Assembly (NCBI GenBank): GCA_964585305.1 | Contig: CAZPDM010000005.1 | Location: 36-64,035, forward strand | Source: an uncultured Planctomycetota bacterium | GTDB taxonomy: Bacteria > Planctomycetota > Uabimicrobiia > Uabimicrobiales > JABWCH01 | Direction of reading: 5' to 3' | DNA: 64,000 nt | Translations under genes and position numbers: made by a program | In this document: piece after piece, positions 1 through 49,425 of the stretch | Layout: each line of letters opens with the position of its first letter | Numbering within the stretch: the stretch's first letter is position 1 | The notes under the pieces: model-generated | What the model was told of the DNA's origin: nothing | Seen by the model: only the letters and a program-made list of their open reading frames with translations | The model's database searches: none

Positions 1-53
1 ATTCTAGTAAAAATAAAAATTTGGCAAGTTTGCTAAATTTTTGGCGAAAATAT

Positions 54-81
54 AAAAAGCCGTACAATGACGGCTTTTTTT
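54..81. terminator. Rho-independent terminator-like hairpin downstream of the 111..2477 (-) gene
   Basis: AAAAAGCCGT-acaatg-ACGGCTTTTTTT. Core stem 58-63/70-75, flanked by an A-run and a T-run, so it is usable on either strand. Confidence 0.6.
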
Positions 82-110
82 AAATATGCTATAAATCTAA
101 TTTAATTTCG

Positions 111-2477: not shown

Positions 2478-2485
2478 ACTACCTC

Positions 2486-2632
2486 CTAAGATTTGGGAGG
2501 TTGTGAATTACTTTGGGCTGGAATAGGGATAGATATAATAGCATGACATTCTAAACATTGTAATTTTTTACCAATATATTTATTTGGAACAGAGATATAT
2601 TTCCCACAATTACATTTAAAAATTACTGGCAT
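2486..2632 (-). CDS. 48-aa zinc-ribbon microprotein (absent from the supplied ORF track)
   Basis: Hand translation: MPVIFKCNCGKYISVPNKYIGKKLQCLECHAIISIPIPAQSNSQPPKS. It has CxC...CxxC. The stop lies 8 nt before the start of the downstream gene, and the spacer holds that gene's GGAGG. Clear paralog of the ORF at 51235..51402. Confidence 0.6.
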   Translation of the reverse strand: MPVIFKCNCGKYISVPNKYIGKKLQCLECHAIISIPIPAQSNSQPPKS

Positions 2633-2810
2633 AGACTTCTCCTTCTAAAATTTAGTTAAATAAATGATTATTATTTAGATTTTACGTATAAGCATCAGAA
2701 AAAGCAATAGATAGTTAAAATTTAATAAAATTATCTTGAATATCCAAGCAAATTTTTTTATACTTAACAAAGGAAAGTACTAGACAATTTCAAATTTATA
2801 AGGAGTTTTT

Positions 2811-3371
2811 ATGACAAAAATATTTTTTCTTACACTTATATTATGTCTTCCATTTGTTTATAGTGCGCCAGTATTCTTTAACCAGGGTGTTGGAGCTAAC
2901 TTTCATGGATATGAACTTATTTCAGGAAGCACCTGGACATGGACACAAGCCAGAGATGCTGCCGCTGCAAGAACAATTGTTGTAGATGGAGTAACATATA
3001 CTGGCCATCTAGTTACTATTACTTCTGCAGCAGAAAATGAATTCATTCGTACAAATTTTAGTTGTACAATGAATCCCTGGATTGGTGCATACCAATATGA
3101 TAAGGCAGTAGAACCAGCAGGCCATTGGCGTTGGGTAACAGATGAAGTTTGGAGTTATACAAATTGGAATAGTGGAGAGCCTAATAATTCAGGTGGGGCT
3201 GAAGAATATGCCCAATTTTATAATACTGGATTTTGGAACGATCTGGCGAATAATGGACTTAGTGGATATATAGTAGAATATGATGTTGTTGCTCCCGAGC
3301 CAAATACATTAGGTTTATTATTAGTAGTATTTACAGGAATTTGGCTGCGACTGAAAACAAAAAAAAACTAG
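2811..3371 (+). CDS. Secreted C-type lectin domain protein with a PEP-CTERM sorting tail
   Basis: Signal peptide MTKIFFLTLILCLPFVYSA. CTLD motifs: WIGAYQ, WRWV, and NWNSGEPNN...FWNDL (EPN + WND Ca/sugar-site motifs). The C-terminus is VAPEPNTLGLLLVVFTGIWLRLKTKKN, i.e. PEP + TM + basic tail. Confidence 0.8.
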   Translation: MTKIFFLTLILCLPFVYSAPVFFNQGVGANFHGYELISGSTWTWTQARDAAAARTIVVDGVTYTGHLVTITSAAENEFIRTNFSCTMNPWIGAYQYDKAVEPAGHWRWVTDEVWSYTNWNSGEPNNSGGAEEYAQFYNTGFWNDLANNGLSGYIVEYDVVAPEPNTLGLLLVVFTGIWLRLKTKKN

Positions 3372-23885: not shown

Positions 23886-23929
23886 AAAAAAAAAGTCTGT
23901 TGGTCAAGAAAACCAACAGACTTTTTTTT
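23886..23929. terminator. Bidirectional intrinsic terminator between convergent genes
   Basis: A9-GTCTGTTGGT-caagaaa-ACCAACAGAC-T8. Confidence 0.8.
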
Positions 23930-23937
23930 AGTATTTC

Positions 23938-25119
23938 TTATTTTTCCATAACACGTTGAAAAGGTTTAGATTTTACTTCTGTGTTAGGTTTGGTAGCGAG
24001 TACAGAAATATTAGATATAGTTTTATTAACGACTTCTTCATTCTTAGGAAGTAGTTGAGGTTTAATTTCTACACTAGAAAGATCAAAGTCTCCACTAATC
24101 TTTTTAGCTTCCTGCAAATTAGCTCTTTCCCATTTAGAATTATCTATCCAAGCCCATGCTTTATTTCCATCATGAATAAGTAAAGCATTTTGCTTACGAT
24201 TATTGATTTGCGCAGAACCTAAACGAATAACCTTTTCTTCTGCAATTTTTTGCCAAGCATTTTGGTTCATCCATGCCCAAACACTTCCTTGTGTATAAGC
24301 AATAGCTATATCATTTTGGCCATTATTATCTAAATCTAATATTTCAAGACTATCTGCCATTTCTTCATCAATTTTTTGCCAAGTAGAGTTATTCAGCCAA
24401 GCATAAATTGCTGGAGTATTTTTGTATGCAATAACAAGATCTTCTTGAGCATTATTATCTATATCTGCAACAACGATATCGTTTGCTGCTTCATTATCAA
24501 TATGCTGCCAATATTCATTATTCATCCAAGCATATATGCTGTTGCTATGAGTATAACTCATGACAATATCTTTTTGCCCATTATTATCTAAATCACATAA
24601 AGCAATAACATTTGCCGATTCATCATCTATTTTTTTCCAAGTATTGTTAAGATACATAAATGTACCTTTATCATTATCCAAGGAAATAATGAGTTCTGCC
24701 TGTCCATCATGATCAACATCTCCAGCAACTTGCGTACGTATTATAGCCTCGCCAATTATCTTGGAAAATTGGAAAACATTAACACCTGGACGATACGTAC
24801 CACCATCAGGAGAATATTCTATAAATGAAGCCAGAGAAAGAATATCATCAGTAGAAATTGTTAATAATGTTCCAAGAGGAAGATCATTCTCTGCATAATT
24901 AGCAATATCATTTGCTGTTTTTTTAATAGCACCATTTACTAAACAATAGCAAACATCTGGATTCTGACTTGTAGCAGACAAAATAATATCATATAACTGT
25001 ACAGGATTCGGATCTGGAACTTCATTCGCTTTCTTATTATTATGTTTAAGGCATGACAGACAAGATAAAGAAATTATAAGAATGAGAAAAAAAATAAAAT
25101 AAGTTTTAGTTTTTTGCAT
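23938..25119 (-). CDS. Exported FG-GAP/VCBS-like repeat protein (possible lipoprotein)
   Basis: Signal peptide MQKTKTYFIFFLILIISLSCLSC. ATG 25119 has AGGA upstream; the ORF-track start at 25143 adds 8 aa. The ~43-aa repeats carry DxDx(D/N)GQx(D/E) loops, e.g. DLDNNGQKDIVMSY...IYAWMNNEYWQHID, DIDNNAQEDLVIAY...IYAWLNNSTWQKID and LDLDNNGQNDIAIAY...VWAWMNQNAWQKI. Confidence 0.7.
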   Translation of the reverse strand: MQKTKTYFIFFLILIISLSCLSCLKHNNKKANEVPDPNPVQLYDIILSATSQNPDVCYCLVNGAIKKTANDIANYAENDLPLGTLLTISTDDILSLASFIEYSPDGGTYRPGVNVFQFSKIIGEAIIRTQVAGDVDHDGQAELIISLDNDKGTFMYLNNTWKKIDDESANVIALCDLDNNGQKDIVMSYTHSNSIYAWMNNEYWQHIDNEAANDIVVADIDNNAQEDLVIAYKNTPAIYAWLNNSTWQKIDEEMADSLEILDLDNNGQNDIAIAYTQGSVWAWMNQNAWQKIAEEKVIRLGSAQINNRKQNALLIHDGNKAWAWIDNSKWERANLQEAKKISGDFDLSSVEIKPQLLPKNEEVVNKTISNISVLATKPNTEVKSKPFQRVMEK

Positions 25120-25169
25120 TAAAGTTTCCTTAAAAATTAGCAAACTTATTAAGAAAGAATCCCAAGAAA

Positions 25170-25982
25170 CTACTCCTCTAATTGAAAAGATGCTAACACT
25201 TGTTCAAACATGGGATAATATTTGTTAATAAGTTTTTGATCGTTCCGACATTCAAAAATAGCATAATAAACACAACCACCATATTCTAATTCAAAAACTT
25301 TAAGATGTAAAGCTAATTTATCAAATTTACGGACTATGTCATAACAAATCATATTTCCTGAAATATTTTTATTGATTGCATACAAAGTAAGTGGAGTTTT
25401 TTTAACGATATTTACAGTAGAAAACGGATAGTATCTCTTTGTTTTTTGAATTGTTGGAATATTACTTCCAGCAAACTTTAAAAATATAGTAACTTTATTT
25501 TTTACATCAACTTTATAGCGATAACCTTTTAGATCGCTTTCCTCGGAAAAACTTTCACTCCATTCATTTTTTGTAAAAAAAGTGATGCCAAAATCTTCTG
25601 CACTTGTACGTCTTAATGATAAACCACCTTCAACTACTGTTGCTTCAATAATAACCAAAACTGTTGTTGTATCACCTCGATTAAAATCTGCATATATTTC
25701 TTTTATATCTTTTACAACACCTTTACAAGTAATTAGAATATTATCATATTCCATTTCAAAATCTTTTATTTTAGTTTCTGATTCAACTTCTACACCAACA
25801 AATTCAGCAGCCTTACGGATAGCACGATACCGAGCTTTTTCCAATGCTTCAACTTTGTTATTATTAGCTTCCTCAAGACTTGCCTGAGCTTCATAATGCC
25901 CACGTGTTTCAGCTCCCCATTGTGCTTGTAAAGAAAGTATTCCTAATAATAGGATTAAAACAATAATAAAATATCTTTTCAT
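25170..25982 (-). CDS. Exported protein with an N-terminal LPP20/FlgP-like module
   Basis: Signal peptide MKRYFIIVLILLLGILSLQAQ. Module: KARYRAIRKAAEFVGVEVESETKIKDFEMEYDNILITCKGVVKDIKEI. Confidence 0.6.
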   Translation of the reverse strand: MKRYFIIVLILLLGILSLQAQWGAETRGHYEAQASLEEANNNKVEALEKARYRAIRKAAEFVGVEVESETKIKDFEMEYDNILITCKGVVKDIKEIYADFNRGDTTTVLVIIEATVVEGGLSLRRTSAEDFGITFFTKNEWSESFSEESDLKGYRYKVDVKNKVTIFLKFAGSNIPTIQKTKRYYPFSTVNIVKKTPLTLYAINKNISGNMICYDIVRKFDKLALHLKVFELEYGGCVYYAIFECRNDQKLINKYYPMFEQVLASFQLEE

Positions 25983-26016
25983 AGTTTATTTTCCTTAAAA
26001 TATATTTTTTCTTAGC

Positions 26017-26056
26017 AAAACATGCTTTAGTTGATAACAACTAAAGCATGTTTTTT
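26017..26056. terminator. Hairpin or weak terminator inside the exported-protein cluster
   Basis: AAAACATGCTTTAGTTG-ataa-CAACTAAAGCATGTTTT (17-bp stem including the A/T ends). It lies between the stop of the 26090 gene and the start of the 25982 gene. Confidence 0.5.
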
Positions 26057-26089
26057 ATATTAATAGCTAATTCAACCGTGACTATTGAA

Positions 26090-26956
26090 TTATTTTGCCA
26101 TTAAACCAATACCTTCGGCAATAAAAATTTCATCATCATCTTCAATACCTTCAAATAAAGAATAATCTTCATCTGAAAGTTCTAAGCCTAATTTTTTCAA
26201 ATTTTGGGATAAAGAATAGATGCACATGTGTTTGGGAATACGAAGTTTCATAGTAACTTTTTTGGCTGTGAAATCAATATTAATTTTTAGAATTTCGCAT
26301 CCAACTAAGGTTGTCTTTTGCAAAACATTTAAACGAGTTTGTTCTTCAAGAATAAATTTGTTGACTTTTTCATTGCAAGCAACAATTTCTTCTGTAACTT
26401 GTTTAGCAACATTACTACGGGCTTCAGCATACGCAGCAGTAATAGCATTAGCAATTAACTTTCCGCCTTCGGTATAACCAGAAATACCACAAACAAGCAA
26501 TTTTTCTGGCAATAAGCGAGAAACTTCCATATATTCTGAACCTTTAAGTTTTCCGCCAATGCTTCTTTCAATACTACGGATCATCCAAGCATTAGAAATT
26601 TCCATGTAACTGGCAACTACACCTAGTTTTGTGTCAACAACATCTAAATCGCTTCTTTTCTTAGCACCAGTTAATTTTGTTGGAGGAATATCAACTTTAG
26701 TAATAATCATACTAGTATTATTATTGATAATACTTACTTTACTAATCACAGCACCTAAGATATTTTCAACAATAAAACCCTTGGCTTGGATAGTAGCATC
26801 TTCTTGTCTTACAGAAACTTCTTGTATTTGAGCAACATTCATTTTGCTGGCCCATTTGGGATCATGTTTCAAAGGAATAGAAGAAACGAAATCTTGTGCT
26901 ACAACATAAGAACTGAATAAAATAATACCAATCAATAAATATGCGATGTATTTCAT
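26090..26956 (-). CDS. Exported LPP20/FlgP-like protein, paralog group A
   Basis: Signal peptide MKYIAYLLIGIILFSSYVVAQ. Module: ITAAYAEARSNVAKQVTEEIVACNEKVNKFILEEQ...VGCEILKINID. The C-terminus ends ...AEGIGLMAK, like the 28619 gene. Confidence 0.65.
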   Translation of the reverse strand: MKYIAYLLIGIILFSSYVVAQDFVSSIPLKHDPKWASKMNVAQIQEVSVRQEDATIQAKGFIVENILGAVISKVSIINNNTSMIITKVDIPPTKLTGAKKRSDLDVVDTKLGVVASYMEISNAWMIRSIERSIGGKLKGSEYMEVSRLLPEKLLVCGISGYTEGGKLIANAITAAYAEARSNVAKQVTEEIVACNEKVNKFILEEQTRLNVLQKTTLVGCEILKINIDFTAKKVTMKLRIPKHMCIYSLSQNLKKLGLELSDEDYSLFEGIEDDDEIFIAEGIGLMAK

Positions 26957-27072
26957 AACAATCTCCCGAATTTAATAGAAAAATTCATACTTGCCAATCA
27001 GCAGCAAGTTTAAATAACGAATTTTTCTTAATTTTCTGAAAATATAATTAATTGGCAAACTAAATTACATTT

Positions 27073-27738
27073 TTACTTTACAAGATAGGCTTTTCCTGTT
27101 ACTACAATCTGATCAGGAATAATATTAGGAAAATTTTTAACTGACTCATCGCCAAGTTTTTTCTTGACTAAAAATTCAATAAATTGAGATTCGATTTTTC
27201 CTTCTACTGTAACACAAGTTTTATCAGAATTCCATACAGGAGTACCAATTTTTACACCTCTCAATGTTTCTTGAGAAGTAGTTACTGTATTTGGATCAAT
27301 CTTTTTAAAAATAGCCTGCAATTCTTTAGCAATTGCAAGTTTTGCATCTATGCTAGCTTCTTCTATGGCTATTGTTTCCATTTGAGTAATTCTTACAATT
27401 GGATCCTGTAAAGGAGATAACGCATAGACAAAAACAGTCTGTGTTATTTCATATTTAGGAGAGTACAAGACAACTTCTAATGCTTGGCTTGTTTCCTGAG
27501 ATATCCAAAGAGCATTATTCTTCCACTCACATCCTGGAGTTTTGACCTCTATTTTAGAAATCTCTACTTTGCGCATGTTATTACCATCACGATAATAGAA
27601 TTCAAAGTAGATTGGAGTATTCACAAAGGTAATAACTCGATGAGGAATAATAACAATATTTTTTACAATTTCCTCTTTATCACATCCCATTGAAAAAAAT
27701 AACAACAGGCTTAGTAAAATATAGCAGAATACCTTCAT
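27073..27738 (-). CDS. Exported (possible lipo)protein: Ig-like N-terminal part + LPP20-like C-terminal module
   Basis: N-terminus MKVFCYILLSLLLFFSMGC. Module: METIAIEEASIDAKLAIAKELQAIFKKI...LRGVKIGTPVWNSDKTCVTVEGKI. Confidence 0.55.
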   Translation of the reverse strand: MKVFCYILLSLLLFFSMGCDKEEIVKNIVIIPHRVITFVNTPIYFEFYYRDGNNMRKVEISKIEVKTPGCEWKNNALWISQETSQALEVVLYSPKYEITQTVFVYALSPLQDPIVRITQMETIAIEEASIDAKLAIAKELQAIFKKIDPNTVTTSQETLRGVKIGTPVWNSDKTCVTVEGKIESQFIEFLVKKKLGDESVKNFPNIIPDQIVVTGKAYLVK

Positions 27739-27773
27739 GTTTTATCCCTGCTATTAAAGTTTAATACTTAATA

Positions 27774-28556
27774 CTATTGAAGAACAGCTTCTCCACGTTC
27801 TTTTTCATAAGAGTTAAAAAGAGCCTGTAAAGTTTGGCATTCTTCAAGAGTTAAAGAAACACCTAATTCTTTTAATGTTTGGCTAAGAGAAAGAATATAC
27901 AAGGGAATTTTAATCTCAGCATCAATATATACTTTTTTATCGCTCCAATTGACGATTGGTTTAGAGAAACCGCAACCAATGAGCTTCAAATTTTCTAAAG
28001 TAGCTTGATGTTCTTCATGTTCCAAGATAAATTTATCAACGGTTTCACTATTTGAAATAACTTCCCCAAACAACCGTGCGCCAAGTTTTGCAGCTGCATC
28101 TAATTTTGCCATTTTAATATTATTAACAACTCGTTCTCCTGATGGAGTAAAAGCTGCATAACCATATTCAACAGTTTCTTTTGGAAAAAGATATTTGATG
28201 TCTTGAATCTGTTTTAAAGTTAATCTGCCTGGTTTCATTGAATCTTCCAAAGACACCATAATATCATACTGAGCAATACTAGCTTTTGCAATGACAAAAC
28301 CATTAGCACTATCAATATTTTCAACAGTTGTTTTACATAGTTTAAGTAAATAACCTTGAGACTTTTTGATAATTTCAATACTAATATTATTTAAACCAGC
28401 TCTACTTTCTTTAGCAATCCAAAAGCCTTGCGCACGTTCAGAAAGATTTTTTTTTGCATCTTCTTGAGCTGCAATCTTCGCCTGTTCTAAATTAAGGCTA
28501 TATGCTGTAACTGAAAAAATACAACATACAAATAGACAAACTATAATTAACTTCAT
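27774..28556 (-). CDS. Exported LPP20/FlgP-like protein, paralog group A (two modules)
   Basis: Signal peptide present. Modules: AKIAAQEDAKKNLSERAQGFWIAKES... and MAKLDAAAKLGARLFGEVISNSETVDKFILEHEEHQ...IGCGFSKPIVNW. Confidence 0.65.
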   Translation of the reverse strand: MKLIIVCLFVCCIFSVTAYSLNLEQAKIAAQEDAKKNLSERAQGFWIAKESRAGLNNISIEIIKKSQGYLLKLCKTTVENIDSANGFVIAKASIAQYDIMVSLEDSMKPGRLTLKQIQDIKYLFPKETVEYGYAAFTPSGERVVNNIKMAKLDAAAKLGARLFGEVISNSETVDKFILEHEEHQATLENLKLIGCGFSKPIVNWSDKKVYIDAEIKIPLYILSLSQTLKELGVSLTLEECQTLQALFNSYEKERGEAVLQ

Positions 28557-28618
28557 AAAATTTTAAGCCTCCAAAATAAATCAAAAAAACGAAAATAATC
28601 ATATAAAATTATATCTCA

Positions 28619-29389
28619 CTAATTCGGGATAATACCTATTCCTTCAGCAGTTATATCTTCTTCTGGGATTTCTTGTACATCTTTAAGTAATTCTTCCCAA
28701 TTCTCAGGTTTTTGTTCTGAAATAATAGTTAATAACAAGGCTTTATAGATACGAAGGTTAATAGAAGTTGTAACGACAAAACGTTTGTCTTTAATTTCTT
28801 CTTTAAGAACTTCCAGGCCATTGATATATTGAAAGCCTTCTAGTTTGCTTTTAACTTCTTGATTTGTTAAAATAAATTTTTCAACTTGGACATTTTTTTC
28901 AACAATTTCTCCACAACACGTTTGGGCTATATTTCTCATTGCATCAACTAAAGCAATTCTTCGGGCTTTAATTAACTTTATTCCTTGTACATTTAATGGC
29001 CCACAGCCCATAGCTTTTATAGTATCAGGAAGAAAACTCGCTGCAAGTTTTAAGGAATCTTTAGGATACTCTGAATTCGAAGCTATATTTTCAAGATTTT
29101 TTAAATATTTTTCTCTCGTAATAGTTGCTTCTACCACTAAATAATTCGAATTTTGAGAGGCTAATTTTGTAGAAAAACCTTCAATAAACGACTTATTATT
29201 TTTCGTAATATATTCTATTTTTTTGCTATCAGAAGAACCTGCAACAAATGTTCCTACTACACATTCCCCTAAATTTCGCATAGCATCAACTTCTGCAACG
29301 CGAATAGCAGTTTGAAGGATTTTGGGATTTGTTTGTGCAATACTTAAAGTTGAAATAATGAAAAATAAAACAAGCATGATTTTATTCAT
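28619..29389 (-). CDS. Exported LPP20/FlgP-like protein, paralog group A (two modules)
   Basis: ATG 29389 (MNKIMLVLFFIISTLSIAQ) has GAGAGGTG upstream; the ORF-track start at 29401 is a GTG. Modules: AIRVAEVDAMRNLGECVVGTFV... and ARRIALVDAMRNIAQTCCGEIVEKNVQVEKFILTNQ. The protein ends ...AEGIGIIPN. Confidence 0.65.
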   Translation of the reverse strand: MNKIMLVLFFIISTLSIAQTNPKILQTAIRVAEVDAMRNLGECVVGTFVAGSSDSKKIEYITKNNKSFIEGFSTKLASQNSNYLVVEATITREKYLKNLENIASNSEYPKDSLKLAASFLPDTIKAMGCGPLNVQGIKLIKARRIALVDAMRNIAQTCCGEIVEKNVQVEKFILTNQEVKSKLEGFQYINGLEVLKEEIKDKRFVVTTSINLRIYKALLLTIISEQKPENWEELLKDVQEIPEEDITAEGIGIIPN

Positions 29390-29463
29390 AAAAATATGCA
29401 CCTCTCTAATAATTTGAACATTTTCAGAGAAATGATTCCGTATCGCTTCAAAAGAAAGCTATA

Positions 29464-29486
29464 CCTCGTAGCGAAAAACTACGAGG
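29464..29486 (-). other. Intercistronic stem-loop
   Basis: CCTCGTAG-cgaaaaa-CTACGAGG (8-bp stem). It shares the CCTCGT...ACGAGG arms with the hairpin at 13749. Confidence 0.5.
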
Positions 29487-29514
29487 AATCTATGATATAG
29501 CTACTAAACTAAAT

Positions 29515-31215
29515 TTAGTAAGAAATATATGCCTCACCGACAGCCTCAACAGATTCCGGTAAATTTTTTAGAATATGTTGAACTAACGCATTATTATTAG
29601 GGAAAATATCTCTTAATAATCTTTGAACAAATCGTTTTGACATTGTTGCTGTAACTTGAACATGATCTTCTGCGTTCCAAGTCGTATTACTTTTTCGGAC
29701 TCCAGTAAGTCTTCCAAAAATAGAAAGAGTAATGGTATCTTTTTCTGTAATACCATCTTTTACTTCTGTAGCACTTTCAATGCTAGCACCATAAATTTTT
29801 TCTGCAAGCTGTATTTTAGCATCCAAAAAGGCTTCTTCTTCTGCAATTGCCTGCATTTGTGTTTTAGCAAGTACTCTATCTTCGTGAACATTAACAACTT
29901 TAATTTTTATTTCTTTTACAAAAGTATTAGGATACAAATAGAATTGAATCTTGGCTTCACATTCTTGATAGGGTGCAGTATAACTTAAATTACTTGCTGT
30001 TCCTAAATTAGCGCGAATAAAGAAATCTTTATCACTATAAGAACTTGACTCTATTTTAAAAACGATTGTTTTCCCAGTTTTTATTACAAGAGGATATGGT
30101 ATAATTGTCAATTTTGGTATAGAAAGAGAAATTGGTGCAGAAGCTTGATTTCCTTTTAAATTCAATGTATAGATTTTTTGGCTATTGGCATAAAATTCAA
30201 AAATATTATCACCAGCTTTTAAAGGAACCACAACTTCAAAATTTCCTCTATCTATTTTTGTAATTGCAAGGCTTTCTGATCCAAATTTGATAAAAAAGTT
30301 TTGTGGTAATTGAGAAGCTGGTGCAAGCGAACCTCTGATTGTAACTTGATTAGATTCCCAACTAGAATTATTTTGAGGTGTAATATTAGATATACTATAA
30401 GAAACTTCTTGTGGTTGTTCAAAGAAAATAGGAATACTTCTTATTTTACTACCATTTATTTCAAATTCTAATATATTTTGGCCAGGAGACATTAGACCAA
30501 TAAAAAGAGAAAAAACAATCTGGCCACTTTCATATCTCAAATAGCTTTTTAAATTATATTGGTTAGAAGTATTCGCTTGAATAAGCCAGAATGAATTAGG
30601 TATAGCTGAAATACTGCCTTTTATTTCAACTTTATTTTCAGAAAATTTTTGTTCATAAGAAGGAGATTGAAGGCTAAGTATGGGTAAAAAGGTTGTTGAT
30701 GTAGGCAAACTTATCTTTGAAAGATCTGCAATCGAAAAATTTTGGGAAGTAATAGAATAAGAAGTTTTTGGCCGCTGCCCTCTTAAAAAATCATAAAGTT
30801 CATTTCTGGTAATTTGTTGATCTTTATCTAAATCAGCCTGACCTAATAAACCATCCCAAAGATGCTGCCAATTTATAACACCAACCATAGAATTTCCACG
30901 AAATGCAAGTTCTTTATCTTTCTTTAAATAAATAGAAAGAATATTGATATTATTTTGAAATTTTGTAGTAGCTTCCAGAGCTGGCAATTCAGTAAATAAC
31001 AAAATAGTATCAGTTAAATTAGGATATTCATTAGGATTTGAAGGATAGGGAAGATTAGAGTAATATCTTGGCACGAAATTAAAAACTGACAATTTTTGAA
31101 ATTCCTGCAACTTTTGATTTATCTCAGGATTTGATCCAATTACCCAAATTTCCAATCCCATTGTTGAAGCAACTATTAAATATCCAATAAACAGCAAAAA
31201 GCTCATTTTTTTCAT
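29515..31215 (-). CDS. Exported multidomain protein: EF-hand-like loop, two Ig-like repeats, C-terminal LPP20-like module
   Basis: Signal peptide present. DLDKDQQITRNE fits the 12-residue EF-hand loop DxDxDxxIxxxE. Two internal paralogous ~75-aa segments: KVEIKGSISA...GQNILEFEINGSKI and NQVTIRGSLA...GDNIFEFYANSQKI. C-terminal module: AKTQMQAIAEEEAFLDAKIQLAEKIYGASIESATEVKDG. Confidence 0.6.
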   Translation of the reverse strand: MKKMSFLLFIGYLIVASTMGLEIWVIGSNPEINQKLQEFQKLSVFNFVPRYYSNLPYPSNPNEYPNLTDTILLFTELPALEATTKFQNNINILSIYLKKDKELAFRGNSMVGVINWQHLWDGLLGQADLDKDQQITRNELYDFLRGQRPKTSYSITSQNFSIADLSKISLPTSTTFLPILSLQSPSYEQKFSENKVEIKGSISAIPNSFWLIQANTSNQYNLKSYLRYESGQIVFSLFIGLMSPGQNILEFEINGSKIRSIPIFFEQPQEVSYSISNITPQNNSSWESNQVTIRGSLAPASQLPQNFFIKFGSESLAITKIDRGNFEVVVPLKAGDNIFEFYANSQKIYTLNLKGNQASAPISLSIPKLTIIPYPLVIKTGKTIVFKIESSSYSDKDFFIRANLGTASNLSYTAPYQECEAKIQFYLYPNTFVKEIKIKVVNVHEDRVLAKTQMQAIAEEEAFLDAKIQLAEKIYGASIESATEVKDGITEKDTITLSIFGRLTGVRKSNTTWNAEDHVQVTATMSKRFVQRLLRDIFPNNNALVQHILKNLPESVEAVGEAYISY

Positions 31216-31442
31216 AGAAAATTAACGACAAAATTTCTTAAAATAAGAAAATGTCGTTCCTCCTTAAAAAAGCCTTGTCTTGTATATTATGAAATATTTA
31301 TTAAAAAAATCAAGTTAAAGCATTTTTTAAATATAAAATTTTTGATGTCTTATAATAAGAGATATTATAACAATTGTCAACATTTTTATTTATGACAAAA
31401 TATCTTTGCTAAGATTTTTATCTTTTTCAGGAGAAAGAAAAT

Positions 31443-32006
31443 ATGCTTCAAACTCTACTTGACTATTTCGATGAATGGGCAAAAGATAAAACATGGTATT
31501 TAAGAAGTATTATTCTTGTTATTATGCTATTTCTTACTTTTCAAATGTGCGGAAGAGAAGGCTACCACAGTTGGTTTTCCGGAATAAACTTAGGAATTCA
31601 TGAAATTGGACATCTCGTATTTCGTTTTGGCGGTGAAGTCATTTGTGCTTTTGGTGGCACACTACTGCAATGTCTAGCCCCTCTCATTGCAATAGTAGTT
31701 TTTCTCAAAACTCCCGATCTAACTGCGATTCCATTCGCAATGACTTGGCTTGCTTCAAATTTGCTCAACGTTTCCTATTATATAGCAGATGCATCTAAAA
31801 TGGCCCTTCATTTAGTAACTCCCGGCGGGGGCGAAGCCTCTCATGACTGGAACTTCTTGCTGGGCAAATTTGGTCTATTAGGAAAAGAACGATTTATTTC
31901 CGGTTGCGTTTCATTTTTAGGTTTTATTGTTATGATAGCAGCAATCCTTTTACAAGCATGGATGATCTTTCGCATTTATCAGATAAATAAAGAAAAAAAT
32001 AAGTAG
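31443..32006 (+). CDS. Small polytopic membrane protein with an HExxH motif (M50B-like metalloprotease candidate)
   Basis: HEIGH lies in or next to a hydrophobic segment (GINLGIHEIGHLVFRFGG). There are about 5 hydrophobic helices. Confidence 0.5.
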   Translation: MLQTLLDYFDEWAKDKTWYLRSIILVIMLFLTFQMCGREGYHSWFSGINLGIHEIGHLVFRFGGEVICAFGGTLLQCLAPLIAIVVFLKTPDLTAIPFAMTWLASNLLNVSYYIADASKMALHLVTPGGGEASHDWNFLLGKFGLLGKERFISGCVSFLGFIVMIAAILLQAWMIFRIYQINKEKNK

Positions 32007-32067: not shown

Positions 32068-32889
32068 TTATTTTGCTTTTTCTGTTTCTACATTAAGTTT
32101 TGCTTGGGTCTCTGTATTCTTTTTTTCGATTGCTTTTGATTTTTCTGTTTGGTACTCATTCCAAACAAATAAAGTTACACCAACGACAACAAGGCAATCT
32201 GCAATATTGAAGGTTGGCCAATGATAACGAGTTACATAAAAATCTAAGAAATCTCTAACTCCACCAAATATTATTCGATCCCAAAGATTTCCTGCTGCTC
32301 CTGCCATGATCATGCCAAGAAAAACTTGATAGTATTTGGGATATTCGTGAGAAATAGCAAGGTACAAAATAAATAACATGGCAATAATAGAAAAAAGTTG
32401 CAACATTATAGTTTGACCTTCAAAACTGCTCCAAATCGCTCCAAGATTAAATGCCAAACGCAAACTGAAAAAATCTGGAATAACAGAATAAATGTGATAG
32501 TCTGGTTTAGCAAGTAAACGTGGGCCTAATGGGTGATTATTTGCAGGAAGAGGATATTTAGGCTGGGAAATGTGGATTTCTTTTCCGCGAACTAATAAAA
32601 GAAAATATTTACCACTTTCATATACCCAATATTCATTATGGAAATTCATTCTTAAAATTGCTTGAGAAGATATAGGAATATGAGAAACAAGCTGTTTTTG
32701 TAAGTCTTCTGTTATTGGACCCGAAACTAAATATTTACTATAAGAATCAGGAATTTTTGCTATAACTTCAGGAACAAAAATTGTTCCTTCTAAGGAAGAA
32801 AATGTCCACGATTTACTTCCAATATCTAAGAAAAATCCTAAAATAATTACTAGTAAAAAAATCCAATTTTTACGAAAAAAATTTAGCAT
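32068..32889 (-). CDS. lspA: Lipoprotein signal peptidase (signal peptidase II) with a large periplasmic insertion
   Basis: LspA motifs: LDIGSK, FNLGAIWSSF, GAAGNLWDR, VRDFLDF, FNIADCLVVVGV (both catalytic Asp contexts are present). About 105 extra residues sit between TM1 and the NLGA motif. Confidence 0.8.
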   Translation of the reverse strand: MLNFFRKNWIFLLVIILGFFLDIGSKSWTFSSLEGTIFVPEVIAKIPDSYSKYLVSGPITEDLQKQLVSHIPISSQAILRMNFHNEYWVYESGKYFLLLVRGKEIHISQPKYPLPANNHPLGPRLLAKPDYHIYSVIPDFFSLRLAFNLGAIWSSFEGQTIMLQLFSIIAMLFILYLAISHEYPKYYQVFLGMIMAGAAGNLWDRIIFGGVRDFLDFYVTRYHWPTFNIADCLVVVGVTLFVWNEYQTEKSKAIEKKNTETQAKLNVETEKAK

Positions 32890-32975
32890 AAAAAATCTTT
32901 CTATTGATAAAAATATTTGCTATTCGTTATCGATAAAATCGATATTTTATTTAAGCCACAAAATGTGGGATTGTT

Positions 32976-33755
32976 TCATATTTTTAGACAATTTTGTAAA
33001 TATGTTACATCATCTTCAAAGTCAGATAATTTGTTTTGATAGTCTTTTGGGGTTTCAAGGCTAAGTTTGCATGATTTGGGAAAAGATTCGATAATTTTTT
33101 TAAGAGGAAAATTGCCTTTTCCTAAATGAAGGTGTTGATCATAAAGACTAATAAAATCTCCATCGCAAAGATGGAACATTTGAGGATTAAGTGTCATGAA
33201 TTCTGAAATAAAAGCAAATGGCTCTTGTTTGAGAGCATTGGCAGCACAAATCGCATGTCCAATATCTAAACAAAACCCAGTTTTTGCCTTTTGTATAACC
33301 AACTGAATTTGTTCTGGAGTATAGCCATTGCAAAGTATTGTTCCATCTACTCCCCAATAAGGTTTATTTTCAATAACAATTCGCGGATCCCAGATTTCTT
33401 GAATTTGTTGTATGGTTTCGTTTAAATCTCCATCAGTACCAGGATGAAAAATTATATATGATGCAGAAAGAAGATTAGCAAATTCTATAGCTTCACGGGC
33501 ATAAGATAAATTTTGTTTTTTACAATCAGATTTTGCGAAATTAAGACCACTTTGGCTATGAGGGGCATGAATAATAAAAGGAATATGTTTAATTCCTTCC
33601 CAAATATGAAAACATGTTTGAAAGGATTTTGGCACGGAATATAATTCAATATACTGGCACCAACCTTCTTCATAAAGTCTGACAGCATCCGAAACATAAT
33701 AATCATTTGTTGACCAAATTTTTAATCCAAGTTCTATCATAAATTTTCCTACCAT
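32976..33755 (-). CDS. Xylose-isomerase-like TIM-barrel (AP endonuclease 2 superfamily) protein
   Basis: The size and pattern fit sugar-phosphate isomerase/epimerase-type TIM barrels (IIHAPH, IIFHPG, ENK, DIGH, HLCDG...HLHLGKG). An alternative start at M6 is possible. Confidence 0.5.
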   Translation of the reverse strand: MVGKFMIELGLKIWSTNDYYVSDAVRLYEEGWCQYIELYSVPKSFQTCFHIWEGIKHIPFIIHAPHSQSGLNFAKSDCKKQNLSYAREAIEFANLLSASYIIFHPGTDGDLNETIQQIQEIWDPRIVIENKPYWGVDGTILCNGYTPEQIQLVIQKAKTGFCLDIGHAICAANALKQEPFAFISEFMTLNPQMFHLCDGDFISLYDQHLHLGKGNFPLKKIIESFPKSCKLSLETPKDYQNKLSDFEDDVTYLQNCLKI

Positions 33756-33792
33756 TTTTTTAATAGAAAAACCAAAAGAAATTTTTAATTTC

Positions 33793-34944
33793 TTAACTTG
33801 CTAATTCTTTGATAACCTGCACAATATGAGAAATATCTTTATTTGTAAGAACAGGATATAGTGGTAAAGAAAATTCTGATTGATAATAAGCATTGGCATG
33901 AGGAAATTCTTCTGGTTTATTGCCAAGTTTTTGATAAAAAGGTTGGTTAGGAACAGGAATATAATGAACTTGCAAAGTAATTCCTCTTGCTTTTAATTTT
34001 TCAAAAAGCTCTCGTTTAGTAATTTTAATTTTACTAAAATCAATAAGCAGCGGACAAAGATGGAAAGCTGCTTCAGAGTATTCTTTTTCTGCAAGTAATT
34101 TAAATCGTTCATCACCGGCAAAAAAATTTCGATATAGCATTACAATCTCACGGCGTCGTTTTTTAAACTGTTCAAGCTGCTTCATCTGAGAAATGCCTAG
34201 TGCTGCTTGAATATCAGTTAACCGATAGTTGAAGCCAAGCCAGTGCATTTCATAATACCAAGGTCCATCATTATGAGTAAGATATTTTGAGTCTTTAGTC
34301 ATTCCATGAGAGCGTAAAATCATAAGTTTTTCGTATAAATCTGGATTGTTTGTAGTAATCGCGCCACCTTCTGCGGTTGTAATTGTTTTAACTGGATGAA
34401 AAGAAAAGATCGTCATATCAGAATAACAACAATTGCCAACATATTCTTTATGATATTTGGAACCGATTGCATGAGCAGCATCTTCTATAATAAAAATATT
34501 TTTTCCTTGCTTTAATTTGGCAATTTTTTCCATATCACAAGATTGTCCAGCAAAATGAACTGGAATAATTGCACGTGTTTTATCTGTAATTTTACGCGCT
34601 AGATCATTAAGATCAAGCAAACCTGTTTCGGGATCAATATCACAAAATACAGCCTTTGCTCCTACATATAATACACAATTTGCCGAAGCAAGAAAAGTAT
34701 TAGCAGAAGTAATAATTTCATCTTGGGGTTGAAGGTTTAAAACAAGTGTTGTGAGATGAAGCGCAGCAGTACCATTTGCGACAGCAACTGCATACTTCGC
34801 GCCTGTATATCGGCAAATCTCTTTTTCAAATTCTACTACTGTTGGCCCTTGGGTCAGCCAAGCCGAACGCAATGCTTTTGCGACTTCCCAAACATCGCGC
34901 CAGGAAATAGTTTGGCGTCCATAGCTATAAGTTTTTGACTTCAC
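33793..34944 (-). CDS. pseC: DegT/DnrJ/EryC1-type PLP aminotransferase, PseC-like (UDP-4-amino-4,6-dideoxy-sugar transaminase)
   Basis: YGRQTIS...LTQGP...GAKYAVAVANGTAALHL, SFHPVKTITTAEGGAITTN (PLP-Lys context), FNYRLTDIQAALG, LQVHYIPV. Confidence 0.8.
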   Translation of the reverse strand: MKSKTYSYGRQTISWRDVWEVAKALRSAWLTQGPTVVEFEKEICRYTGAKYAVAVANGTAALHLTTLVLNLQPQDEIITSANTFLASANCVLYVGAKAVFCDIDPETGLLDLNDLARKITDKTRAIIPVHFAGQSCDMEKIAKLKQGKNIFIIEDAAHAIGSKYHKEYVGNCCYSDMTIFSFHPVKTITTAEGGAITTNNPDLYEKLMILRSHGMTKDSKYLTHNDGPWYYEMHWLGFNYRLTDIQAALGISQMKQLEQFKKRRREIVMLYRNFFAGDERFKLLAEKEYSEAAFHLCPLLIDFSKIKITKRELFEKLKARGITLQVHYIPVPNQPFYQKLGNKPEEFPHANAYYQSEFSLPLYPVLTNKDISHIVQVIKELAS

Positions 34945-34967
34945 AAAATTTCTCCTGCATAATAACT

Positions 34968-35954
34968 TTAGATATTTTTAAGCTCTTCTTTTAGTTGTTC
35001 GACATTAAGCCACCAAGTATTATTACCGCTGGAATATTCAAAATCTTCGGCAACTGATTTACTATTAGGGAAATTTGCGTTTGCTTTCCAAAAAGCAAAT
35101 TCCGGAGCAATAATATAATACTTTTCTAATTCTAAAGTATGTCTTGCATCTTCTTTTGTAATCATCATTTCGTGGATTTTTTCACCCGGACGAATACCAA
35201 TATCTTTCAATGGCATTTCTGGAGCAAGTGCTTGAGCTAAATCAACCACACGCATAGAAGGAATTTTGCGAACAAAAATTTCTCCGCCTTGCATTTCATT
35301 CAATGCAGTCATAACTAGATCTACAGCTTCTTCAAGACGTAACCAAAATCGCGTCATGCGGCTATCTGTAATTGGTAGTTCTTTTGCGCCAGAATTAATT
35401 AAATTACGAAAGAATGGAATAACAGACCCACGACTGCCAGCGACATTTCCATAACGTACTACAGCAAACTTTGTTTCATGCTTTCCTACATAAGAATTTC
35501 CTGCAATAAAAAGCTTATCTGAACACAACTTCGTTGCTCCATAAAGATTTACCGGAGCGCAAGCCTTATCCGTACTCAAAGCAACAACTCGTTTTACATT
35601 CCGATCAATTGCAGCACTGATCACATTTTCTGCGCCAAAAACATTTGTACGAACTGCTTCAAAAGGATTGTATTCACATGCAGGAATTTGTTTCAATGCA
35701 GCAGCATGAATTACAATATCAATCCCATCAAATGCTCGGTATAATCTCTGCTGATCCCGAACATCTCCAATAAAATATCGAACGCGTTTATCGTTATATG
35801 GCTCTTGATGAGCCATTTCAAACTGTTTTAGTTCATCCCGGCTGAATACAACAATTCTTTCAAAATTAGGATATTTTTCAATGACTGTTTTAATAAACAT
35901 TTTTCCAAATGATCCTGTTCCACCTGTAACAAGAATTGATTTTTGCGATAACAT
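34968..35954 (-). CDS. pseB: UDP-N-acetylglucosamine 4,6-dehydratase (inverting), PseB/FlaA1-like SDR
   Basis: ILVTGGTGSFGK, SRDELKQFEM, FIGDVRD, HAAALKQIPACEYNP, LSTDKACAPVNLYGATKLCSDKLF, RYGNVAGSRGSVIPFF, MTRFW, GIRPGEK. Confidence 0.85.
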   Translation of the reverse strand: MLSQKSILVTGGTGSFGKMFIKTVIEKYPNFERIVVFSRDELKQFEMAHQEPYNDKRVRYFIGDVRDQQRLYRAFDGIDIVIHAAALKQIPACEYNPFEAVRTNVFGAENVISAAIDRNVKRVVALSTDKACAPVNLYGATKLCSDKLFIAGNSYVGKHETKFAVVRYGNVAGSRGSVIPFFRNLINSGAKELPITDSRMTRFWLRLEEAVDLVMTALNEMQGGEIFVRKIPSMRVVDLAQALAPEMPLKDIGIRPGEKIHEMMITKEDARHTLELEKYYIIAPEFAFWKANANFPNSKSVAEDFEYSSGNNTWWLNVEQLKEELKNI

Positions 35955-47378: not shown

Positions 47379-47990
47379 ATGGATAAACAAAAATTAGGCC
47401 AAGAATTATTAAAAACTAAAAAATTGACCAAAGAACAATGGCAGATGGTTCTTACTTTGCATGACAAAATTGGTGGTGATTTTGCACCTCTTTTAGTAAA
47501 GCTGGGATATGTTTCAGATATTGATATTACTGAAATCATAGGCAGATTAGAAGGGGTGGAAACAATAGATATTAGCACTATTGTTATACCTAAAAAATTG
47601 ATGAACCAAATCCCACGTGATGTTATTGAAAAACACGGTGTTATTCCTATTTCTAGACGTGAAAATCAAATTACACTAGCAATGTCAAATATTAACGAAT
47701 ATGACGCGATCGAAGAAATTCAATTTTTAACAGGTTGCAAAGTAGAACCCGTATTAGCATCACGTGAAGGAATACGGAAAGCTATTTTTCAATTTTTCTC
47801 TGAAGAGCAAAAGGAAGAAGAACCTACAACTCCATCTAAAGATGCGACATCTTTAGAAAAACTCATAGAACAAGATAATCTTGCATTTCAAAAAGCATTA
47901 GTTCAACTACTTATTCAAAAAAATATTTTTTCTCAAGACGAGCTGCTTGCAAAATTAGGAAAATCAACTACTAAAGAGGAAAAAAAATAA
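47379..47990 (+). CDS. Stand-alone T2SS-E N-terminal (GSPII_E_N/MshEN-like) domain protein
   Basis: KLGQELLKTKKLTKEQWQMVL...LGYVSD and IPRDVIEKHGVIPISRRENQITLAMSNINEYDAIEEIQFLTGCKVEPVLASREGIRKAI. Confidence 0.6.
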   Translation: MDKQKLGQELLKTKKLTKEQWQMVLTLHDKIGGDFAPLLVKLGYVSDIDITEIIGRLEGVETIDISTIVIPKKLMNQIPRDVIEKHGVIPISRRENQITLAMSNINEYDAIEEIQFLTGCKVEPVLASREGIRKAIFQFFSEEQKEEEPTTPSKDATSLEKLIEQDNLAFQKALVQLLIQKNIFSQDELLAKLGKSTTKEEKK

Positions 47991-48072
47991 GGTCTTTATC
48001 AGTTTTAACTGAGCAACTCATCCATCCCCGAAGTGAATAACTTTGGGGTTTTATCAATGCGAGGTGCTTTTT

Positions 48073-49425
48073 ATGGAAATTATTGTTAAAAAGGACATCT
48101 TTGATGAACTCCAAGCTAAGGGAGTTTGTCGTTCTAAAGAAGAATCTGAAAAATTTTTAAATATAGTAATTACAGAAATCGCAAAAAATATTGAAACAAA
48201 CAAAATCAAATTAGCAGGATTTGGTACATTCTTTTGCACACAGAAAAAAGATGCTGAATTACTAGACAATTCTATTATCTTTGATAAAATAACACAAAAT
48301 TTAGCAGATATGAATCGTGAGCGAAGTACTCAGGCCTGGGAAGTTCTTATAAATTATATAAAAAATATGATAGTTAAGGGATATGAAGTTCAAATTATGG
48401 ACTTTACCTCTTTCAGGATTGAAGAACGAAAAGCTCGGCTTGGAAGATCTCCCAAAACAGGCCATCGAGTTATTACTTCTAACAAAAAATTATTAAAATT
48501 TGATCCTGATAAAAAATTTTTAGAACTATGCAAAATACCAATTGAATTCGAACCTGAAGCAGAGGTACAAAAGCAGATAGAAAAATCTCGTTCCGGAAAT
48601 ATTGTTTTACTTGTACCAACTCGAGACTTTTTTATTAAAACTGTAGAATATCATTTTGAAAAAGCTGGCTGGAAAATCAATACTTGCCACAATGTTGAAG
48701 ATGCTCAAAAGTTTTTACGTACTGCAAAACCACAATTGCTTATTATCGATGTTCTAGTCGATAAACATCAAGAGATATGTGAGTTTATAAAATGCAATCG
48801 TGAAACAAACTTAATTCCTTTGGTTTTATTATATCCCAAAGATATGGATATTAAAAAAACAGACAATTTTCGTGTATGTGGGGATGAACATATTATCCAA
48901 CCTTTTGAAATCAAACAGTTAGTACATATTATTGAAAGTTTACTGTGGCGAATTTCAGAAGAAAGTACTATTTTAAAACACGAAGTTGTTTTTCAATTTC
49001 CTACAACAGATGAAAACATTGAACGAGCTAGTGAATTATGTGGAAAATTATTTGCCCTGTCCGGCCTTTCAGAAGAAGAACAAATTACCTTTAATGCAGC
49101 ATTTCGTGAAGCCTTAGCTAATGCTGCCCAACATGGAAACAAACATCGTCGTGATAGAATGTTGGAAGTACTCTATTTATTAGACAGAGAAAAAATAACT
49201 GCATCTATAGCTGATAGCGGAACTGGTTTTGATTGGCAAAATTATATCAAAACTAACCAAGCTAATGACGCTGTAGGTCGAGCTAGACAAAGTCAAAAAG
49301 AAGGTCGTATGGGTGGTTTGGGAATTATGTTAATGAGTCGTTGTGTAGATAAAATCGAATATAACGAAATTGGAAATATCGTTACTCTTAGCAAAATAGT
49401 CAAACCTGCTGTAAAAGCTCAATAA
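48073..49425 (+). CDS. Fusion protein: HU/IHF-like DNA-binding module(s) + atypical receiver-like domain + RsbW/SpoIIAB-type HATPase (anti-sigma Ser kinase) domain
   Basis: ATG 48073 has GAGGTG upstream; the ORF-track start at 48043 is a TTG. HU-like: KIKLAGFGTFF and ...RKARLGRSPKTGHRVITSNKKLLKFDP. REC-like: VLLVPTRD...LLIIDVLVD...QPF. HATPase: EALANAAQHGNK...IADSGTGFDW...GGLGIMLM. Confidence 0.65.
   Translation: MEIIVKKDIFDELQAKGVCRSKEESEKFLNIVITEIAKNIETNKIKLAGFGTFFCTQKKDAELLDNSIIFDKITQNLADMNRERSTQAWEVLINYIKNMIVKGYEVQIMDFTSFRIEERKARLGRSPKTGHRVITSNKKLLKFDPDKKFLELCKIPIEFEPEAEVQKQIEKSRSGNIVLLVPTRDFFIKTVEYHFEKAGWKINTCHNVEDAQKFLRTAKPQLLIIDVLVDKHQEICEFIKCNRETNLIPLVLLYPKDMDIKKTDNFRVCGDEHIIQPFEIKQLVHIIESLLWRISEESTILKHEVVFQFPTTDENIERASELCGKLFALSGLSEEEQITFNAAFREALANAAQHGNKHRRDRMLEVLYLLDREKITASIADSGTGFDWQNYIKTNQANDAVGRARQSQKEGRMGGLGIMLMSRCVDKIEYNEIGNIVTLSKIVKPAVKAQ

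Follow-up and report, generated by a model that had tools for sequence, protein, structure and literature searches.

To our knowledge, structures of the FlgP family are known only as rings on flagellar motors. FlgP adopts a modified SHS2 fold (Drobnic et al. 2025, PMC12222027) in which a long β-hairpin, inserted after the helix, builds up an uninterrupted sheet within every ring of the basal disk, and the presence of this hairpin insert correlates with ring formation in the family; FlgQ is predicted to be a repeat of two FlgP units, and FlgT has been placed in the same fold group (PMC12222027). In Helicobacter pylori, the LPP20 fold is found in HP1456 (Lpp20) and a structurally similar domain opens HP1454, and the proteins of this operon interact with FlgP and FapH (PMC11756786). 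Here, we analyze a cluster of seven co-directional minus-strand open reading frames (ORFs), denoted G1 to G7 in the direction of transcription, that occupies positions 23938-31215 of a 64-kb stretch of DNA from an uncultured Planctomycetota bacterium (the window hereafter), with intergenic gaps of 26-116 nt. Because the module that builds the FlgP rings is found in six of these genes and no flagellar gene is present nearby, the cluster probably encodes an undescribed envelope scaffold. The superfamily itself is already known; what is new here is a distinct subfamily, a new architecture, and a non-flagellar context.

Relationship to the FlgP/LPP20 superfamily

A sequence-only reading of the window, made without database searches, had recognized one or two copies of an LPP20/FlgP-like module in six of the seven products. 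When the seven proteins were compared directly with Pfam (hmmscan, E up to 1), LPP20 (PF02169, InterPro IPR024952) was not matched, nor did NCBIfam yield such a match, and the sole related Pfam match was that of FlgT_N to G2 (E 0.0036, below threshold). The relationship is nevertheless real, although visible to deep profile searches only. An exhaustive HMMER search with a profile of G2, G3, and G5 retrieved 85 relatives, 63 of which match PF02169 (best E 3.6e-22), connecting the window family to LPP20 transitively; 9 of the relatives carry EF-hands and 6 match FlgT_N. Against the sequences of the PDB, the family profiles matched FlgP chains only (Campylobacter jejuni 9hmf_C, Vibrio 8z5n_2, 9yec, 9yfg, 9yds), with best E-values of 8.6e-10 for profile A3 (13 sequences), 1.2e-15 for profile A4 (32 sequences), and 9.8e-13 for profile A7 (module 2 only). 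Deeper alignments were needed for this result, the three-paralog profile A1 having no match in the PDB, and G1 alone reached C. jejuni FlgP (9hmf_C) with a phmmer E of 0.0024. The likeness to FlgP amounts to homology across β1, the helix, the hairpin, β2, and β3: the alignments span β1 to β3 with one-residue gaps between the helix and the last strand, and those on C. jejuni FlgP 84-161 and Vibrio FlgP 22-120 pass through the ring-forming hairpin stretch.

Chains of Lpp20, HP1454, and FlgT were not matched in the PDB by the family profiles at E up to 10, which places the window family nearer to FlgP than to Lpp20. The N-terminal domain of FlgT from the Vibrio H-ring (PF16548) gave weak matches to G2, to its ortholog P0005 (E 0.035), and to the six relatives mentioned above, those in the window all lying below the Pfam threshold. 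Judged from the profiles, G1 to G6 are members of the FlgP/LPP20 superfamily that form a distinct, rare subfamily, with only ~20 close relatives in a set of 1.84 billion representative proteins. Both a profile relationship to FlgP and, as described below, a synteny of four genes were found for the cluster.

The distribution of the module among the proteins was determined with a hidden Markov model (HMM) trained on non-window matches only. This model matched G1 (residues 458-524, E 1.5e-14), both modules of G2 (E 3.4e-5 and 5.2e-13) and of G3 (E 1.5e-5 and 5.6e-10), G6 (E 2.3e-6), and module 2 of G5 (E 7e-4). A second HMM, from the single-unit C-terminal family, matched modules 1 and 2 of G5 (E 6.6e-4 and 4e-3), G6 (E 3.2e-6), and, at an E of 0.012 only, G4. 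The latter protein is the weakest case, tied to the family by this low score and through G1, the C terminus of which resembles that of G4 (pairwise E 1e-7) up to the terminal motif G(E/K)AY(I/L). None of the other ORFs in the 64-kb window scores with either HMM, and the original description of the module, including its count of six proteins, is therefore correct.

The full-length paralogy of G2, G3, and G5, likewise proposed from the sequence together with common mid-protein and C-terminal motifs, is borne out by pairwise comparison (G3-G5, E 1e-18; G2-G3, E 3e-10; G2-G5, E 1e-4) and by their alignment, in which the LPxx motifs and AEGIG C termini are evident. Two modules were detected in G2 and G3 with the module HMM and in G5 with the second HMM, and the structural model of G3 contains the unit twice. 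With ortholog pairs at 36-44% identity vs 21-29% between paralogs, these three proteins are shown to be ancient two-module paralogs. Two FlgP-like modules per chain is also the arrangement predicted for FlgQ, a likeness of plan; however, FlgQ is encoded beside flgP in a flagellar operon, whereas the cluster encodes three distinct tandem-module proteins and no single-module FlgP ortholog.

The module proteins have one further, compositional peculiarity. In five of the six, the number of lysines and arginines exactly equals that of aspartates and glutamates (54/54, 32/32, 26/26, 35/35, and 37/37; 31/32 in G3), a balance that was not seen in 13 other window proteins checked and that is possibly a coincidence.

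Exported proteins outside a flagellar context

Hydropathy analysis agrees with the claim that all seven products have signal peptides: a signal-peptide-like hydrophobic segment (mean Kyte-Doolittle hydropathy of 2.5-3.6 over 12 residues) is present at the N terminus in 7/7 proteins, and no later transmembrane-like segment was detected in any of them. Candidate lipobox sites, both non-canonical, occur in G4 (...FSMGC) and G7 (...SLSC), and the signal peptides of G1, G2, G3, G5, and G6 do not end in a cysteine. The ORF list and the Pfam and NCBIfam scans revealed no enzyme, transporter, or regulator within the cluster, again as first described. Flagellar genes are absent from the 64-kb window, from the vicinity of the orthologous locus, and from that of the more distant relatives examined, and no characterized apparatus matches the cluster, in keeping with the novelty originally suggested for it. 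The cluster proteins and FlgP are alike in being exported envelope proteins, but the cluster has no flagellar context, consists mostly of non-lipoproteins, and includes six paralogs vs one, with the modules arranged in tandem or fused to β-rich, EF-hand-like, and other domains.

These comparisons bear on the possibility that the cluster encodes flagellar motor accessories, namely, the FlgP/FlgQ basal disk or H-ring of this lineage, at a distance from the flagellar genes proper. The sole solved relatives are flagellar FlgP chains, G2, G3, and G5 follow the two-module plan predicted for FlgQ, and some bacteria have scattered flagellar genes. Furthermore, PseB and PseC equivalogs of the pseudaminic acid pathway, both above the NCBIfam cut-offs, are encoded ~3 kb upstream on the same strand, and pseudaminic acid, made by PseB and PseC, glycosylates flagellin in Campylobacter and Helicobacter. 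However, PseB and PseC serve lipopolysaccharide or capsule synthesis as well and are encoded outside the transcription unit of the cluster. All module proteins except G4 are non-lipoproteins, the subfamily is one of its own that PF02169 does not detect directly, and, beyond the loci listed above, no flagellar gene recurs in 72 metagenomic loci with related proteins (see below). A flagellar role of the cluster hence appears quite improbable.

Predicted structure and permutation of the repeat unit

The AlphaFold2 model of G3, obtained with a 32-sequence alignment, is of high confidence (predicted local distance difference test [pLDDT] 94.2; predicted template modeling score [pTM] 0.87) and includes, twice over, a long helix followed by four strands (a two-strand hairpin plus two), then helices, and then a strand. 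The predicted elements of module 2 are a strand (127-135), a helix (138-163), four strands (166-174, 177-192, 201-203, and 208-216), two helices (217-230 and 237-246), and a strand (250-258). This predicted order is the one expected of an SHS2-like protein, in which a helix lies across one face of a three-stranded sheet, and matches the modified SHS2 fold of FlgP (PMC12222027). Together with the sequence alignments, the two extra strands predicted after each helix (45-53/58-66 and 166-174/177-192) indicate, at the level of sequence and prediction, that the hairpin insert characteristic of the ring-forming FlgP subset is present in the cluster family. Among the non-significant fold matches of module 2, the best was H. 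pylori Tip-alpha (TM-score 0.44-0.49, E above 1), which is called a structural homologue of Lpp20 in the title of Vallese et al. 2017 (cited in PMC12222027 and PMC11756786). When module 2 of G3 was modeled alone, the pLDDT was 77, with the hairpin stretch below 50 and not predicted as strands. Given this loss in the isolated module, we infer that the hairpin needs the neighboring module, and the predictions are consistent with a requirement for a partner module.

The alignments further revealed an 'LPxx......GxG/A' strand after every unit in G1-G5. The mid-protein LPxx motifs serve as the linker into the first strand of module 2, and the motif with its strand occurs again at the extreme C terminus, as AEGIG in G2 and G5, RGEAV in G3, GEAYI in G1, and GKAYL in G4. 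The first module opens with the helix directly after the signal peptide and has no leading strand, so that each chain has a spare leading strand at its end. Compared with FlgP, the unit of the cluster is permuted, with the leading strand last and an orphan strand at the chain end; the module of G6 has the canonical order, strand first. In terms of the model, it is possible that the orphan C-terminal strand closes the first module within its own chain.

Conservation of the gene order

The closest relative of G3, P0004 (44% identity), is encoded on contigs that include JAKLHB010000131.1 from the metagenome-assembled genome (MAG) Planctomycetota bacterium RA.bin53 (assembly GCA_022710345.1). Loci of this type retain the order G1-G2-G3-G5 with one-to-one orthologs, at identities of 30% for G1 (ortholog of 667 aa), 40% for G2, 44% for G3, and 36% for G5 (locus L003), showing that these four genes are a conserved core operon of exported FlgP-type module proteins. 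The synteny envisaged for the cluster as a whole was found for this core only, G4 being absent from the orthologous locus and G6 and G7 having no conserved partners in the homolog searches. The flanks of the orthologous locus consist of housekeeping genes (ribosomal proteins, DnaB, and BamA), unlike the flanks in the window, and the relative contigs stop after the G3 or the G5 ortholog.

Searches with individual members returned little else. A genome scan with a G3 and P0004 profile identified the RA.bin53 contig only, a metagenome scan with G5 and its ortholog identified nothing, and the exact G5 sequence has no database record. A word-indexed homolog search with G3 or G6 returned the query itself only, with no whole-length homolog of G6, and the search with G7 yielded partial FG-GAP relatives only (26-33% identity) in unrelated contexts. 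The possibility that the cluster is an artefact or a product of chance was considered and ruled out by the orthologs, the confident structure model, and the profile statistics.

The boundaries of the contigs that carry the orthologous locus merit a separate observation. Contigs L003 (4636 nt), L004, and L005 start inside the G1 ortholog or shortly ahead of it and stop ~20-45 nt past the G5 ortholog, mirroring the position of a stem-loop that follows G5 in the window. Contigs of ~4-4.6 kb from JGI samples 3300019216 and 3300019247 cover exactly the orthologs from G1 to G5; if the samples are metatranscriptomes, these contigs would represent polycistronic G1-to-G5 transcripts.

More distant two-module relatives (E 1e-20 to 1e-33) contain N-terminal EF-hands and coiled coils; their genes are preceded by one for an exported protein of 384-440 aa and followed by one for a single-module protein of 267-273 aa. 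This arrangement is a second cluster type, identified in low-GC relatives (L007, 4169-7889; L008, 5915-9485; L012, 1596-2927). The EF-hands are encoded by an ORF of their own (160 aa) in L007, and L012 shares both its sample of origin and its G+C (0.41) with the orthologous locus L003. In yet another relative, P0011 (L011, 10001-12253; 750 aa), three ~170-aa β-sandwich-like repeats precede the double module, and the gene is located directly 3' of a nucleotide-sugar cluster (UDP-sugar dehydrogenase, 2-epimerase, DegT aminotransferase, and hexapeptide transferase).

Alternatively, the clustered genes might encode independent periplasmic or surface proteins with a common small domain that do not co-assemble and instead stabilize the envelope, bind ligands, or resemble antigens, their clustering simply reflecting tandem duplication. 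The LPP20-like family is broad and mostly uncharacterized, Lpp20 is not known to form rings, the monomer model of G3 is self-sufficient and of high confidence, and the accessory domains vary from protein to protein, all of which fits this scenario. What speaks for co-assembly is that the paralogs, although old, keep their order across lineages, which argues for a constraint on the gene set. In the same direction point the alignment to FlgP, which includes the ring-forming hairpin stretch, the confident prediction of this hairpin only along with the second module, and the recurrence of module-protein clusters in unrelated lineages. On balance, we consider independent, non-assembling proteins unlikely, although this alternative carries appreciable weight.

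Related operons in metagenomes

A metagenome scan yielded 80 loci, in 72 of which ORF calling and clustering identified a multi-module gene, mostly with three modules. The same ~324-aa gene is found immediately upstream in 38 loci, that is, in essentially all those with enough upstream sequence, and a single-module ~380-aa gene is located downstream in ~59 loci; no other neighbor recurs among the 72 loci, flagellar genes included. The product of the upstream gene is a lipoprotein that matches Pfam CsgG (31.5 bits vs a cut-off of 20.8) and contains tetratricopeptide repeats (TPRs). The operon (loci L013-L091) accordingly encodes a CsgG-domain/TPR lipoprotein, a ~450-aa three-module LPP20 protein, and one or two ~380-aa single-module proteins. 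No literature was found on LPP20 in combination with CsgG or with Planctomycetes, and this operon is apparently both widespread and undescribed.

Like the cluster in the window, this operon is self-contained, encodes exported proteins with the same module, and has no flagellar neighbors, and residues 1-116 of G6 match the N terminus of the ~380-aa family of single-module proteins (E 2.3e-12 in a search of the seven cluster proteins). Unlike the operon, the window cluster encodes two-module rather than three-module proteins and an additional FG-GAP protein, and lacks a CsgG-like gene. A CsgG-like member of the cluster was sought and rejected, the best match of the upstream-family HMM having an E of 0.23 in a seven-sequence search and Pfam CsgG being absent. 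The H. pylori lpp20 operon (HP1454, HP1456/Lpp20, and HP1457) is also a small operon of exported proteins, but differs in domain architectures and gene number, and, as noted above, its Lpp20 and HP1454 chains were not matched.

The CsgG connection raises the question of whether the cluster proteins could be accessories of an outer-membrane export channel, by analogy with CsgG-type lipoprotein channels, and form a funnel or collar in the periplasm through which a polymer, for instance a surface glycan or fiber, would be secreted. The position of the CsgG/TPR lipoprotein gene immediately upstream of the three-module gene in the 38 loci is compatible with such a role, as are the nucleotide-sugar genes near the cluster (PseBC) and upstream of P0011 and the fusion of the double module of P0011 to β-sandwich-like repeats. 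Yet none of the seven proteins matches CsgG-like, β-barrel, or transporter families, the sugar genes are not conserved neighbors, with the orthologous locus lying amid ribosomal protein genes, and there is no candidate substrate gene. We therefore deem a function in polymer export very improbable.

Accessory domains and putative calcium sites

Immunoglobulin (Ig)-like repeats and an EF-hand-like loop had been noted in the products of the cluster, and G1 contains candidates for both features, with weak Pfam matches. The tandem β-rich repeats are well supported internally (z = 6.0; 0/500 shuffles as good), and Glucodextran_B (Ig-like) was matched weakly in G1 and in its ortholog. The EF-hand-type loop, DLDKDQQITRNE in G1 and DINKDKRITKYE in the ortholog, fits the pattern D-x-[DN]-x-D-x-x-I-x-x-x-E, with Q (G1) or K (ortholog), not G, at position 6, and the Pfam EF-hand_1 match to the G1 loop has an E of 0.22. 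Genuine EF-hands, by contrast, are fused to the double module in distant relatives.

The identification of the last gene as an FG-GAP-like calcium-loop repeat protein holds above the Pfam thresholds: G7 matches FG-GAP_3 (E 1.9e-12; 48 bits vs a cut-off of 26.9) and FG-GAP (E 5e-7; 29.9 bits vs a cut-off of 22.1). Its repeats of 43 aa, which appear in the DNA as a 129-nt tandem repeat, include four DxDxN-type loops (pattern D.[DN].[DN][GA]..[DE]) at residues 142, 184, 227, and 270 (401-aa ORF numbering), with 43-aa spacing.

A putative non-flagellar envelope scaffold

Considering all these lines of evidence, we lean slightly toward the view that the cluster encodes a self-contained, non-flagellar, calcium-associated periplasmic scaffold of FlgP-type modules assembled by β-sheet augmentation. 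The subunits, composed of modified SHS2 (LPP20-like) modules, would be exported by Sec and would then pack side by side via their β-hairpins into a continuous sheet, in the manner of FlgP protomers in the flagellar basal disk. The orphan strand at the C terminus might either close module 1 of the chain that carries it or complete that of a neighboring chain. The EF-hand-like loop of G1 and the DxDxN loops of G7 could provide Ca2+ sites that stabilize the assembly, and G4 and G7, as putative lipoproteins, may anchor it to the outer membrane. Beneath the outer membrane of a Planctomycetota-like diderm, a hetero-oligomeric arc, ring, or sheet would result, and the presence of BamA, FadL-like, and DUF481 genes in the window indicates that the organism is indeed a diderm. 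By analogy with FlgP, and given the homology across its ring-forming hairpin stretch and the FlgQ-like tandem modules, assembly into a ring or scaffold is plausible. A more specific version, a so far unseen non-flagellar periplasmic ring or disk with hairpins side by side, C-terminal strands engaged head to tail, each completing the strand-less first module of the next chain, and Ca2+ as a stabilizer, is an unlikely, speculative outcome.

Several observations weigh against the scaffold. FlgP is a lipoprotein, whereas the lipobox cysteine is missing in five of the six module proteins, and the lipoboxes of G4 and G7 depart from the canonical form. Assembly as such is argued from the analogy with FlgP, and no ring formation is known for H. 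pylori Lpp20, which belongs to the same superfamily (PMC12222027, PMC11756786). Foldseek searches of the PDB with the full G3 model and with the isolated module 2 gave no significant match. The C-terminal strand is placed confidently in the monomer model of G3 (pLDDT 96), so that closure within the chain, without strand exchange, may suffice. Given the absence of G4 from the orthologous locus and the lack of conserved partners for G6 and G7, the seven-gene unit may be a core of four or five genes plus neighbors. Finally, the negative results for flagellar genes are limited to the 64-kb window and the loci of relatives.

Gene layout, transcription signals, and surroundings

The genes and features of the cluster are listed in Table 1. 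The G+C of the cluster (~0.31) is similar to that of the DNA around it. The start of G7 is more likely the ATG at 25119, since the source gene call is 393 aa, and that of G2 is possibly an internal ATG (M5 or M9), the source gene call P0003 being 252 aa long.

Table 1. Genes, protein segments, and transcription signals of the G1-G7 cluster (window coordinates)
Feature	Residues	Position (nt)	Strand	Remarks
G1		29515-31215	-	566 aa
G1 EF-hand-like loop in N-terminal domain	128-139	30799-30834	-	loop kept in ortholog
G1 tandem β-rich repeats	181-272 and 273-362	30130-30675	-	third β-rich stretch after
G1 C-terminal FlgP-like unit with terminal G-x-A strand	~448-566	29518-29874	-	
G2		28619-29401	-	260 aa; C terminus AEGIGIIPN
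G2 module 1	~28-95		-	
G2 module 2	~144-209	28775-28972	-	
G3		27774-28556	-	260 aa
G3 module 1	25-93	28278-28484	-	
G3 module 2	149-215	27912-28112	-	
G3 terminal strand	250-258		-	
G4		27073-27738	-	221 aa; possible lipoprotein; β-rich N-terminal part
G4 C-terminal unit	~117-219	27082-27390	-	end strand GKAYL
G5		26090-26956	-	288 aa; C terminus AEGIGLMAK
G5 module 1	~43-149		-	
G5 module 2	170-238	26243-26449	-	
G6		25170-25982	-	270 aa
G6 module, canonical order	43-108	25659-25856	-	β-rich C-terminal domain after
G7, ORF		23938-25143	-	401 aa
G7, from ATG start		23938-25119	-	393 aa
Sigma-70-like promoter match		31352..31380	-	TTGACA-17-TATTAT, 11/12; upstream of G1; best on strand
Stem-loop between G5 and G6		26017..26054	-	perfect 17-bp stem; -22.7 kcal/mol, z = -6.9
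Bidirectional intrinsic terminator		23887..23929	both	-24.4 kcal/mol, z = -8.4, then nine U

A promoter-like site and a terminator bracket the cluster, with a stem-loop inside it. The promoter match upstream of G1 is a consensus match only, and such matches in the region are not above those in shuffled sequence. Because just four U follow its stem, the hairpin that separates G5 from G6 does not qualify as a canonical terminator; it could be a partial terminator or an mRNA-stabilizing element that splits G1-G5 from G6-G7; as such, it may reduce the expression of G6-G7 relative to G1-G5. The bidirectional terminator is common to G7 and the convergent kinase gene. An Rfam scan of the cluster returned just sub-threshold chance matches, on the two hairpins.

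On the strand of the cluster and upstream of it, the region 32068-35954 (-) encodes signal peptidase II (LspA), a TIM-barrel protein resembling xylose isomerase, and the above equivalogs of PseC and PseB; a divergent membrane-protein gene (31443-32006) separates G1 from these genes. On the other side, four tandem paralogs of 1668-1689 aa with a Ser/Thr kinase domain at the N terminus and a TPR-rich remainder (40-45% full-length identity) are encoded at 3474-23884 (+), convergent on the cluster. Two further loci in the window were noted. At 111-3371, a 788-aa kinase with a C-terminal FGE-sulfatase (SUMF1-like) domain is encoded beside a small C-type lectin-domain protein, and at 47379-49425 (+), the gene for a stand-alone MshEN-domain protein precedes that for an unusual HU-like DNA-binding/VpsR-like/HATPase_c_2 fusion.

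Implications

The cluster described here and more than 70 related metagenomic loci suggest that diderms generally use the FlgP/LPP20-type module to build periplasmic assemblies that are as yet undescribed. The finding is also relevant to the way in which the flagellum acquired its basal disk. Should the ring or disk exist, the family of the flagellar basal disk would have an independent, possibly older, role as a general envelope scaffold. More immediately, the cluster offers concrete targets in bacteria of the Planctomycetes-Verrucomicrobia-Chlamydiae (PVC) group, in which the architecture of the envelope is still debated.

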